The translations under genes were made by a program, and so were the position numbers. From the NCBI RefSeq assembly GCF_003334255.1, contig NZ_QOWU01000136.1: a stretch of 2,318 bases of DNA, one strand, 5' to 3'. The notes below the pieces were generated by a model. That model was not told the origin of the DNA and did not search any database. It saw only the letters and a list, made by a program, of their open reading frames with translations. The number at the start of each line of letters is the position of its first letter. Position 1 is the first letter of the stretch. Below are positions 1-2,318 of this stretch, in pieces. Source of the stretch: Escherichia coli. Its GTDB lineage: Bacteria > Pseudomonadota > Gammaproteobacteria > Enterobacterales > Enterobacteriaceae.

Positions 1-2007
1 GGCGGTGGTCAGCAGGCGGCTGTTCTCACCGCTTCCACTGGTCAGGCGCAGACTGAAGCGCACGCCCTTCACCACCCTCGGCGTGTCCCATTTCGCCAGC
101 GCCAGATACTGGCTGTCAGCTGCGCTCACCTCCACCGTCAGGTGCTGCACTGCCGGTGGGATGACGCTGTTCAGGGAGCCTGACTGCGGCTCAAAGCGGG
201 CACCGTTATCCACGATGGCTTCTTTTTCCGGTACGTGCTGCACCGCCGTGATGGCAAAGGTGCCGTCCGTGTTTTCCCGGATGGCCACACAGCGGAACAG
301 GCGACGGCGCAGTGACGGCAGGGAGAGTCCCCACACCCCGTATGTCTCCACACCATCAGGCAGGGTACTGACCTGTATCCGGTCCGGCGCGGGGTGTGCG
401 GTGATGTCCACACTCACCGGCTTACCGCTGCCGTTAATCAGGTTCACCGTGGCGGCACCTGTCCCCGGAAGTGTCACTTCACGGTCCAGCGTCAGGGTGC
501 GGGTGGCAGCATCAATGGACAGGACACGTCCGCCGGTCAGGGTCCCGGCATAGTCATTATCACAGATTTCAATAATGTCACCGGGTGTGTGCCGCAGCCC
601 CTGAGACCCGAGTGTGAAATCCACCGTCTGCGTTTCCAGCAGTTCGGTCTTTATCACCCACAGCCCGGCACGGTGGGCCTGACCGCGGCTGGTACAGCCG
701 AACGCGTCCATCTTCAGCAGGTTGCGTCCGTAGCGCAGTATGGCTTCCGGGTCTTCCACCAGTTCCGTGGAGGTCTGCCAGCCGTTCTGCGGGTCGGTGT
801 AATTCACCTCCACCGCCGTGTGCCGGTCCTTCAGGGCACTGAAGCTGTAGCGGAACCCCACGCCGTTATCATCCACCACCACATCGCTGTTGGTGTACGG
901 CCACACCACATCCGACGGGCGGTCCTGAACGAACGTCAGCGTCTGGCCGTTCCATACCGGCATACAGCGCATCGCCGAGCAGAAATCACTGAGAACGTCC
1001 CACGCCTTACGCTGTTGTGCCAGGTACGCATTAAAGGTCATCCGCGGCTCTGTGCCCCCGAAACCATCCGGGACCGTCTGGTCGCAGTACTGCCCGATGG
1101 CATACAGCGCCCACTTGTCCACATCCGCCGCCCCCAGACGTTTTCCCATGCCGTAGCGCGGGTGAGTCAGCATGTCCCACAGGCACCAGGCCGGGTTGTT
1201 GCTGTATGCCGGTTTCAGACTGCCGTCCCAGATACCACTGTACGTGCGTTTTTCCGGGTCATAGTTTGACGGCACCTGGATGATGCGACCGCGGATATGG
1301 TAGTTCACCGTCATCTGCTGGCCGCCGAACTGCTCCGCATCCACCTGCAGCCCCACAATGGCCGTGTTCGGGTAGCACTGTTTCACATCGATGATTTCGG
1401 TGTATGACGACCAGAGCGTCTTATTCTGCAGCTGGTCCGTGGTGCTGTCCGCCGTCTCCCTGACCATCCGGATGTTAAAGGGGCGGGGAGGCAGATTATC
1501 CAGAATCACCGAGGCCAGGAACTGTGAGGTGGTCTTGCCGTTAATGGTGACATCCTTTTCTGTCACCCAGTTACCGTTACGCTGTAACTGAATCAGCAGA
1601 CGGACAGAGGACGGATTACGGTCACCCTTTGACGTGGTCTCCACCAGTGACTGCACCCCGAAGGTCACCCGCAGGCGGTCAATGTTCGCTGACGTAATGG
1701 TGCGTGTCACCGGTTTTGCCCTGGTCACTTCCACACCCAGTACAGTTTCAGAGCCGGAGGACTCAAAGCCTTCCGGTGGTGTCTGCTCCTGCTCCCCGGC
1801 GCGCCAGACCGCGGTCACACCGTGTATCACGGGATTACCGTCCGTGTCCGTCAGCGGGGTTTTGTTCACCAGAATACTCTGCAGGCCTTTCACCGGACCT
1901 TCAATGGGTCCCTCACCAATCGCATCAATCACGCTCATCATCTGCGTGGATTTGAGATTATCCTTCGCCTCACGAGGTGTGTGTGCCTTACCGCCACCTT
2001 TACCCAC
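1..2007 (-). CDS. J: Host specificity / tail tip protein J homolog (lambda gpJ-like), N-terminal 669 codons; partial, 3' end lies beyond position 1
   Basis: Reverse-complement translation from GTG (2007..2005) is open for all 669 codons to the window edge (2007 is divisible by 3). The product begins MGKGGGKAHTPREAKDNLKSTQMMSVIDAIGEGPIEGPVKGLQS..., which closely matches the lambda J N-terminus as I recall it (MGKGSSKGHTPREAKDNLKSTQLLSVIDAISEGPIEGP...). Further lambda-J-like blocks follow, e.g. WSSYTEIIDVKQCYPNTA, PAYSNNPAWCLWDMLTHPRYGMGKRLGAADVDKWALY, LFRCVAIRENTDGTFAITAVQHVPEKEAIVDNG. An alternative in-frame GTG start at 2022..2020 would add 5 codons. Confidence 0.92.
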   Translation of the reverse strand, partial: MGKGGGKAHTPREAKDNLKSTQMMSVIDAIGEGPIEGPVKGLQSILVNKTPLTDTDGNPVIHGVTAVWRAGEQEQTPPEGFESSGSETVLGVEVTRAKPVTRTITSANIDRLRVTFGVQSLVETTSKGDRNPSSVRLLIQLQRNGNWVTEKDVTINGKTTSQFLASVILDNLPPRPFNIRMVRETADSTTDQLQNKTLWSSYTEIIDVKQCYPNTAIVGLQVDAEQFGGQQMTVNYHIRGRIIQVPSNYDPEKRTYSGIWDGSLKPAYSNNPAWCLWDMLTHPRYGMGKRLGAADVDKWALYAIGQYCDQTVPDGFGGTEPRMTFNAYLAQQRKAWDVLSDFCSAMRCMPVWNGQTLTFVQDRPSDVVWPYTNSDVVVDDNGVGFRYSFSALKDRHTAVEVNYTDPQNGWQTSTELVEDPEAILRYGRNLLKMDAFGCTSRGQAHRAGLWVIKTELLETQTVDFTLGSQGLRHTPGDIIEICDNDYAGTLTGGRVLSIDAATRTLTLDREVTLPGTGAATVNLINGSGKPVSVDITAHPAPDRIQVSTLPDGVETYGVWGLSLPSLRRRLFRCVAIRENTDGTFAITAVQHVPEKEAIVDNGARFEPQSGSLNSVIPPAVQHLTVEVSAADSQYLALAKWDTPRVVKGVRFSLRLTSGSGENSRLLTTA

Positions 2008-2011
2008 AGAA

Positions 2012-2019
2012 TCCCCCTT
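2012..2019 (-). promoter_or_regulatory. Shine-Dalgarno sequence for J (AAGGGGGA, 4 nt before the GTG start)
   Basis: Minus-strand sequence reads AAGGGGGA-TTCT-GTG; purine-rich and complementary to the 16S rRNA 3' end. Supports the GTG at 2007 as the start. Confidence 0.5.
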
Positions 2020-2049
2020 CACCGTCCGCTGCCGGACACTGTTGATGTA

Positions 2050-2080
2050 TAAAAACAACAGGCACCCCGGAGGGTGCCTG
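2050..2080 (-). terminator. Rho-independent terminator, minus-strand orientation, in the I-J intergenic region
   Basis: Minus-strand RNA reads CAGGCACCC-UCCG-GGGUGCCUG followed by UUGUUUUUAUAC: a perfect 9-bp GC-rich stem (2059..2067 with 2072..2080), a 4-nt loop, then a U-rich tract (2050..2058). On the plus strand the hairpin is not followed by a T-tract, so it is orientation-specific. Confidence 0.7.
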
Positions 2081-2118
2081 CATCATGACGGAATAAAAAT
2101 TCTGAATATCTTCACATT

Positions 2119-2146
2119 TTCACAAACTGACTGTGGCGCGTATAAT
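2119..2146 (+). promoter_or_regulatory. Sigma70-type promoter, plus strand: -35 TTCACA (2119..2124), 16-bp spacer, -10 TATAAT (2141..2146)
   Basis: Perfect consensus -10 hexamer TATAAT and a 5/6 match to the -35 consensus TTGACA with 16-bp spacing. An AT-rich UP-element-like stretch lies upstream (gaataaaaattctgaatatc, 2091..2110). Predicted transcription start is near 2153. Confidence 0.55.
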
Positions 2147-2152
2147 TTCGCT

Positions 2153-2248
2153 GCGTTAGTGTTTTTTCTGCCCGAGTAACAAAAACAACTCCTTAACTCT
2201 AATCTTTGTCTGTCCCCGCAGCTCCGCGATCACTGCGGGATTTTTTTT
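2153..2248 (+). ncRNA. Candidate small non-coding RNA (about 95 nt), antisense to the tail operon, in the I-J intergenic insert
   Basis: Bounded by the plus-strand promoter (2119..2146) and the plus-strand intrinsic terminator (2215..2248). No ATG and no ORF longer than 6 codons between them. Contains a CA-rich stretch (UAACAAAAACAACUCC, about 2177..2192) and an AU-rich stretch before the terminator, as is typical of Hfq-associated sRNAs. Prediction from sequence only. Confidence 0.45.
2215..2248 (+). terminator. Rho-independent terminator, plus-strand orientation
   Basis: CCCGCAG (2215..2221) pairs with CUGCGGG (2233..2239) as a 7-bp GC-rich stem around an 11-nt loop, followed directly by 8 consecutive T (2241..2248) and further T-rich sequence. 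On the minus strand the hairpin is preceded by A-rich and followed by non-U-rich sequence, so it is plus-strand specific. It ends 8 bp before the convergent I stop codon. Confidence 0.7.
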
Positions 2249-2255
2249 ATTCTTT

Positions 2256-2318
2256 TTACCCCTGCCGCCCGATAACCACGACCTTTCCGCCCCCGCCTTC
2301 ATCACGGGTACTGATGTC
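2256..2318 (-). CDS. Tail assembly protein I homolog (lambda gpI-like), C-terminal 20 codons plus stop; partial, 5' end lies beyond position 2318
   Basis: Reverse-complement frame starting at 2318 reads DISTRDEGGGGKVVVIGRQG then TAA (2258..2256). This resembles the C-terminal end of lambda gpI as I recall it (...EISTADEGDGGQVVVIGR). GC-rich coding-like composition stops abruptly at this stop codon. Position directly upstream of J fits lambdoid gene order. Confidence 0.6.
   Translation of the reverse strand, partial: DISTRDEGGGGKVVVIGRQG

Follow-up and report, generated by a model that had tools for sequence, protein, structure and literature searches.

Throughout the lambdoid late operon, RNA polymerase modified by Q is resistant to intrinsic terminators, and morons are independent transcription units inserted in late operons. 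At tR', downstream of PR', the terminated product became an Hfq-binding sRNA, as seen in the 6S RNA of phage λ and in StxS of Stx phages (PMC7547250, whose Term-seq data for EHEC Sakai are deposited at GEO). PasB of EPEC E2348/69 is an experimentally validated Hfq-dependent sRNA (PMC8550237, Table S6) and was described as lying inside a phage structural-gene operon (bioRxiv 10.64898/2026.05.13.724894). EcOnc22 of EHEC Sakai gives an Hfq-CRAC peak and a Northern band of ~85 nt, is destabilised in Δhfq, and has the homologues EcOnc23 and EcOnc24 (Tree et al. 2014). A literature search on the terminator between I and J of phage λ, or on phage Term-seq at this site, returned nothing specific.

Here, we analyzed a 2,318-nucleotide stretch of Escherichia coli DNA (assembly GCF_003334255.1, contig NZ_QOWU01000136.1; "the window") in which the tail genes I and J are coded on the minus strand. 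The features discussed are the following.

1–2007, minus strand: gene J (tail tip / host specificity protein), 5' portion with the GTG start at 2005–2007; the left window edge cuts the gene
2008–2048, minus strand: J leader, with the Shine-Dalgarno sequence GAAGGGGGA at 2012–2020
2049–2057, minus strand: U/T-tract of the predicted terminator, TTGTTTTTA
2058–2081, minus strand: stem-loop of the predicted terminator, GCAGGCACCC-TCCG-GGGTGCCTGT, 10 pairs including the closing G·U, with a 4-nt loop
2082–2100, no strand assigned: conserved linker from the hairpin to the CRP-like site, minus strand ...TTTTTATTCCGTCATGAT, within the most conserved block of the spacer
2101–2116, no strand assigned (read on the minus strand): CRP-like site TGTGA-N6-TCAGA, one mismatch to TGTGA-N6-TCACA
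2119–2146, plus strand: candidate pasB promoter P1, near-consensus sigma-70 TTCACA-16-TATAAT (11/12), pointing away from J; predicted start ~2153
2157–2162, plus strand: candidate pasB −10 element TAGTGT, which fits the reported 5' end at 2169 and is TAnnnT in all variants
2169–2247, plus strand: pasB, a known Hfq-dependent sRNA gene antisense to the tail operon; 83 nt in E2348/69
2215–2247, plus strand: pasB terminator, CCCGCAG...CTGCGGG then T8; 9 nt separate its end from the stop codon of I
2256–2318, minus strand: 3' end of gene I (tail assembly protein), with the stop codon TAA at 2256–2258

The lambda_TipJ model (NCBIfam NF049904) matches the minus strand from the GTG at 2007 to position 2, over 668 amino acids and with 1491 bits, and the J N-terminus of the window is 74% identical to that of λ J. 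The minus-strand translation from 2318 to 2256 ends in ...DISTRDEGGGGKVVVIGRQG (also written ...GGGGKVVVIGRQG) followed by the stop, and this I C-terminus can be aligned both to λ I and to the C-terminal end of the protein annotated as tail assembly protein in E2348/69. The spacer between I and J spans 248 bp in the window versus 60 bp in λ. Inside the J coding region, we also observed a weak terminator-like hairpin on the plus strand (250–267, antisense to J), GATGGCAAAGGTGCCGTC then CGTGTTTT. Its sequence is identical in prophage PP6 of E2348/69 (L385 22254–22237), and it is probably a chance occurrence within conserved coding sequence.

The original prediction was of a strong intrinsic terminator at 2050–2080, between I and J and oriented with the tail genes. 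A consensus scan identified one strong terminator-like site on the minus strand of the window, with a stem running from 2081 to 2058 and a tract at 2049–2057, so the coordinates were right to within 1–2 nt. The I and J alignments likewise bear out the position and the sense, as the hairpin lies between the I stop codon (2256–2258) and the J GTG (2005–2007), with the stem ending 50 nt before the start. The stem had been called a 9-bp GC stem; it does have nine Watson-Crick pairs, but only seven are G-C, the other two being A-U, and a closing G·U is added. The minus-strand tail 3' of the stem is given by the scan as TGTTTTTATA, and the sequence directly after the stem is UUGUUUUUA. Folded alone, the hairpin region (2046–2084, minus strand) reaches −21.6 kcal/mol with z = −5.3, and 0/200 dinucleotide shuffles folded as well. 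Read on the plus strand, the palindrome runs into CATCATGACGG / CAUCAUGACGG, without a U-tract, and the predicted terminator is therefore one-directional. In summary, the site has the features of an intrinsic terminator, namely a stable G+C-rich stem, a short loop, a U-tract on one strand, and retention in relatives, and it sits between I and J, in operon sense, shortly 5' of J.

The DNA upstream of the hairpin had been described as an insert. Extra DNA is indeed present there, but its identity as a known sRNA gene on the opposite strand, pasB, had been missed. The published PasB Northern probe from EPEC E2348/69 matches 2220–2242 exactly, and the 83-nt PasB (NC_011601.1 1466343→1466261, between E2348C_1436 and 1437) aligns to 2169–2247 with one 4-nt gap. 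The exact probe match and this alignment together identify the insert as a pasB cassette antisense to the tail operon, and the genes flanking pasB are the same in the window and in E2348/69. The hairpin is placed just past the upstream end of the cassette, in the opposite direction. Because it points away from pasB, it cannot be the pasB terminator, and pasB has its own at 2215–2247. RNA data from the EPEC lysogen show hardly any expression of I and J (baseMean 4.8 and 15) and abundant pasB (482–1082), and the level of tail-strand RNA is very low upstream as well as downstream of the hairpin.

Two other prophage sRNAs were considered for this locus and ruled out. AgvB was rejected as the plus-strand sRNA, as AgvB and AsxR lie downstream of PR' and Rfam gave no AgvB match. 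HnrS (EcOnc10-12) was rejected as the local sRNA, as its Sakai locus lies beside the lysis genes. The 5' half of pasB (~2169–2205) is strongly divergent between phages (...GAGTAACAAAAACAACTCCTTAAC vs ...CAATAAAAACAAAACTCCCTGTGG, in comparison with L084–L089). Conserved are the pasB terminator and the block upstream of the gene. This pattern of a variable 5' part and a constant 3' part is the one described for AgvB/AsxR-type prophage sRNAs.

A transcript started from P1 near 2153 would be ~95 nt long. As the 5' end reported for PasB was read from RNA-seq coverage, it may reflect either processing of a longer primary transcript or use of the weaker promoter (2157–2162). Upstream of P1, the CRP-like site is centered 44.5 bp from the predicted P1 start and ~60.5 bp from the reported 5' end (2169). 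A match of this quality also arises in 18/200 shuffles of the window. All relatives keep both half-sites unchanged and differ only in the central spacer, and across 236 loci pasB and the CRP-like site were found only in the family with a window-type J. PasB is reported to be higher in overnight static LB than in DMEM, the opposite of the CRP-repressed Spf. From this, we infer that CRP might activate pasB, or that pasB might be under catabolite control.

In the Stx1 prophage Sp15, EcOnc22 maps onto a pasB homolog situated between I and J (NC_002695.2 2,902,849–2,902,909; L097 550–610), a mapping that needs an offset of +135 nt between NC_002695.1 and NC_002695.2, derived from the published StxS1 3' end. 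The Sakai counterpart of the hairpin occupies NC_002695.2 2,902,742–2,902,763 (about 2,902,607–2,902,628 in NC_002695.1). Given the location of EcOnc22, PasB and EcOnc22-24 appear to be one family. The PasB and EcOnc22 literature that we examined makes no mention of the link.

To follow the hairpin across relatives, we aligned the spacers of 80 IMG/VR loci whose J N-terminus is 97–100% identical to that of the window, and added six phage records (spacers 74–87% identical) and the E2348/69 locus. The best-conserved part of the spacer is one block that runs from the CRP-like site through the hairpin and its T-tract (minus strand: AAAATGTGAAGATATTCAGAATTTTTATTCCGTCATGA, hairpin, TYGTTTTT). The pasB body, above all its 5' half, and the J leader are far more variable than this block. 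The T-tract varies among relatives (TTGTTTTT, TCGTTTTT, TTGTTTTC) and is kept in all of them. An exact-pattern scan of IMG/VR gave 119 scorable instances, every one immediately 5' of J, and the hairpin is linked to the CRP-like site in 117/119. The T-tract is present in 119/119, a count that was required by the search pattern; the spacer alignments show the tract without that requirement. Conservation in related junctions, whose absence, together with a lack of mapped 3' ends, the original prediction had named as the argument against it, is what these scans and alignments found. Spacers of this type have the hairpin travelling with the regulatory region that lies upstream of pasB, the two forming one conserved block. 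Two of the MAG contigs encountered, binned as "Collinsella sp." and "Clostridiales bacterium" (L090, L093), carry an E. coli-type J at 94–98% identity, in one case next to a pasB spacer and in the other next to a sodC-type spacer (described below); they are most likely mis-binned enterobacterial prophage contigs.

The stem itself is well kept, with 98.8% of the stem cells paired across 16 distinct versions. One of the ten pairs is changed on both sides, C-G to U-A or the reverse, and in the 119 instances this pair is C-G in 64, U-A in 40, U·G in 14, and C·A in 1. The excess of U·G over C·A indicates that the tolerated intermediate is a wobble pair on the tail strand, although the counts are phylogenetically non-independent and are therefore supportive rather than strong evidence. 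Covariation is thin here: it concerns one pair in closely related, non-independent sequences, and a DNA palindrome would be expected to compensate likewise. These data bear on the idea that the palindrome acts as DNA, either as a site for a dimeric protein or as a linker for homologous recombination and the exchange of J (host-range) alleles. The hairpin block does have variable sequence on both sides. The spacer alignments place recombination break points directly 3' of the T-tract, where different J leaders, variable among relatives, are joined as at a mosaic boundary, and a palindrome in DNA is preserved by compensatory changes equally well. A symmetric DNA site, however, would be indifferent to U·G (14) versus the reverse (1) on the tail strand, with the same caution about non-independent counts. 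Moreover, in other spacers three more unrelated hairpins occupy the same place, and all that they have in common are terminator features, namely a GC stem with a short loop and a T-tract in the same sense. We regard a role as DNA as very improbable.

These other hairpins came from a wider survey. A single-protein scan of genome contigs gave 7 loci and added little diversity, and the diversity comes from IMG/VR scans with three J N-termini, representing the window-, HK633-, and λ-type families (236 loci). The built-in terminator scan missed the terminator of λ and those of the second spacer class described below, possibly because their stems are extended through flanking A-T pairs. We therefore used a purpose-written detector with thresholds of ≥6 pairs, ≥4 of them G-C, a loop of 3–8 nt, and ≥5 T within 8 nt, and took a stretch inside J as the control. 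A same-sense hairpin and T-tract lie within 200 nt 5' of J at 231/236 loci (148/152 distinct sequences), mostly 15–51 nt from the start codon. On the opposite strand, the detector found one in 10/152 distinct sequences, and in the control stretch inside J in 0/157 on either strand. The hairpin sequences before J are unrelated between spacer types. Structure, a compensatory change, and the near-universal presence of a same-sense terminator in relatives thus all back the placement of a strong intrinsic terminator immediately 5' of J.

The spacer types differ in how this is achieved. In a second pasB spacer class (43/80 loci), pasB and its upstream region are kept to TTTTTAT and are followed by unrelated sequence. 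The window-type hairpin is absent from this class, which has another same-sense terminator, CCCCGGTATC-TGCT-GATACCGGGG then TTTCTCTTT. We also observed ~104 nt of extra leader before J in this class (L024, about 1020–1200; also L003 and L033), containing a second hairpin, AGCATG...CATGCT then TTTTC. In λ, mEp460, and PhiR63_2, the spacer has AAACCGCC-TSCG-GGCGG then TTTTGTC, 20 nt before J. HK633, an HK97-like phage whose J is only 33% identical, has AAGCCACCTCCGGGGGGC then TTTTTTT, and its database record annotates this counterpart as "rho-independent terminator" (NC_019719.1 14462–14484). The terminator before J takes yet other forms in Cronobacter phage ENT39118 and in Serratia phage Rovert. 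Since λ, HK97-like, and other phages without the insert carry it, the terminator is not peculiar to the insert.

In a third junction type (L092 1–880; L055, L066, L093), an antisense sodC gene lies between a pasB-like gene and J. The sodC product is a Cu,Zn superoxide dismutase (NF007628, 218 bits), and the pasB-like gene has lost its upstream block. The detector found no terminator before J in these sodC-type junctions, which argues that the element is dispensable in some phages.

We then looked along the whole late operons of two relatives. Same-sense intergenic terminators are found in λ at D/E, E/FI, I/J, J/lom, and lom/orf-401, and in PP6 of E2348/69 at terminase/capsid, T/H, I/J, J/lom, and lom/fibre. 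Those besides I/J are located as follows.

λ (locus L384), same sense: terminator-like hairpins at 6099–6116, 7163–7180, 18920–18935, and 19612–19633
PP6 (locus L385), same sense: terminator-like hairpins at 6892–6909, 14616–14631, 23989–24008, and 24741–24770

In the two late operons, most junctions at which the genes do not overlap hold a same-sense terminator-like hairpin, and J and lom are each bracketed by such hairpins. With such terminators at several other junctions, the I/J terminator is one of a series that punctuates the late operons.

Hairpins of this kind might also serve without useful termination, as elements of mRNA processing or stability. Here, the hairpin would be a barrier to 3' exonucleases or a protective hairpin at the 5' end of the J message, and it would set the amounts of upstream tail-assembly mRNA and of J mRNA during lytic growth. 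Similar hairpins do stand at junctions separating genes needed in very different amounts (λ D/E and E/FI). Since Q-modified polymerase is expected to ignore the terminator during lytic growth, when alone the operon is strongly transcribed, any role in the lytic phase would have to be post-transcriptional. A U-tract would be superfluous in a stability element, but practically every version, in all three J families, has a T-rich tract right after the stem; the conserved tract argues that termination itself, beyond RNA stability, is under selection. The strict one-strand orientation and the tight spacing to the stem are likewise terminator traits. We consider stability as the sole role unlikely, but it is compatible with the terminator reading and both roles can coexist.

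The hairpin could instead be the 3' end of a discrete small RNA from the tail strand. Two versions were envisaged by the original prediction, a minus-strand transcript begun in the insert and an RNA derived from the 3' UTR of the I mRNA. The first would be ~85 nt long and divergent from the pasB promoter region; the second would carry a full PasB antisense and could titrate PasB. The layout is that usual for Hfq binding, with the U-rich, single-stranded AAUUUUUAUU located 5' of a strong terminator. Conservation is very high over the 45 nt that precede the hairpin, although the CRP-like site accounts for it at the DNA level. A promoter on the tail strand can be drawn from the −10 element TATAAT (2141–2146), which mirrors to AATTAT, with a 17-bp spacer, a −35 element CAGAAA, and a start at ~2135, 18 bp from the predicted plus-strand start. 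Such a spacing of starts was reportedly described for bidirectional promoters by Warman and colleagues in 2021. Nevertheless, no promoter for a tail-strand sRNA passes the scan threshold, and the best relaxed candidates in the insert score 7/12.

Rfam also gave a weak, partial match on the tail strand to STnc100 (RF02076, a prophage-associated sRNA) at exactly 2130→2049, with 24.3 bits and E = 0.012, where the putative ~85-nt RNA would also lie. This match spans 27 nt at the 5' end of the model plus the terminator. The score is about half of the gathering threshold of 47, and 127/206 model positions, the middle of the model, are missing; we therefore rejected membership in STnc100 and ascribe the match to generic terminator likeness. 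Table S2 of the EHEC Sakai Hfq-CRAC study has a peak on the pasB strand (EcOnc22) and none on the tail strand at this junction, no I-J intergenic RNA is among the entries listed in the EPEC RIL-seq tables, and λ RIL-seq reports PreS, LPR2, and 6S only. Thus, the transcript begun in the insert is left with weak 7/12 promoter candidates and no RNA listed there, and none of the three data sets lists an RNA derived from the I 3' UTR. The same kind of terminator also occurs in phages without any insert. Altogether, a discrete tail-strand sRNA ending at the hairpin seems quite unlikely.

There is a slim chance that some tail-strand RNA ending at the I/J terminator overlaps the pasB regulatory region or all of pasB. 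Unmodified polymerase could produce it in the lysogen, or it could result from late mRNA being trimmed to the hairpin after induction. If so, it might be a perfect antisense partner that removes PasB at the lytic switch, or a second regulatory RNA, transcribed divergently from pasB.

In all, the hairpin is a real feature, maintained by selection, and an ordinary representative of a known type of element. We conclude that it is probably a rho-independent, conditional terminator on the tail-gene strand at the I/J boundary, one that stops ordinary polymerase and is read through by the Q-modified enzyme, and that it represents the local version of a backbone feature. Termination at the site is deduced from the sequence. 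Control by Q, the usual expectation for lambdoid late operons, is presumed on the basis of the gene order, the window itself having no Q gene or qut site. In the proposed mechanism, polymerase without the Q modification would terminate within the U-tract at ~2049–2053. In a lysogen, this would stop transcription entering from I, or tail-strand transcription through or out of the pasB cassette, and J, lom, and the cargo beyond would thus stay silent. During lytic growth, Q-loaded polymerase would pass the I/J terminator like the other intergenic terminators of the operon, and in the long late mRNA the hairpin could double as a barrier to 3' exonucleases.

What looked like an oddity of an inserted segment would then be the normal terminator that λ-like phages keep before J, a minor point on its own. 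The junction has more to offer. As the sodC-type junctions indicate, the I/J boundary is a repeated landing site for opposite-strand cargo of the kind expressed in lysogens, be it pasB or pasB together with sodC, and the regulatory region of the cargo and the terminator of the phage backbone form one conserved block. For studies of PasB, it also means that late transcription must cross pasB in antisense before it reaches the I/J terminator.

Compared with known systems, the hairpin is closest to its counterpart in λ (15461–15484, AAACCGCC-TGCG-GGCGGTTTTGTCATTT), with which it shares the junction, the strand, a GC stem, a loop of tetraloop size, and a T-tract. The terminators of λ and HK633 stand at the same site, a few tens of nucleotides before the J ribosome-binding site. 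The window hairpin is unrelated to that of λ in sequence and is stronger (−21.6 vs −15.2 kcal/mol). It also lies farther from the I stop codon, at ~175 bp with the pasB cassette between them, versus ~15–20 bp in λ- and HK633-type spacers. Like tR', it is predicted to be an intrinsic terminator in a Q-controlled operon that only Q-modified polymerase would be expected to read through. Unlike tR', it has no strong constitutive promoter upstream on the same strand, and no Hfq-bound product is listed for it. Finally, like the terminators that flank morons, the window hairpin stands at the edge of an inserted, lysogen-expressed unit, here pasB; unlike them, it points away from the inserted gene, and phages that carry no insert have a terminator at the same place.
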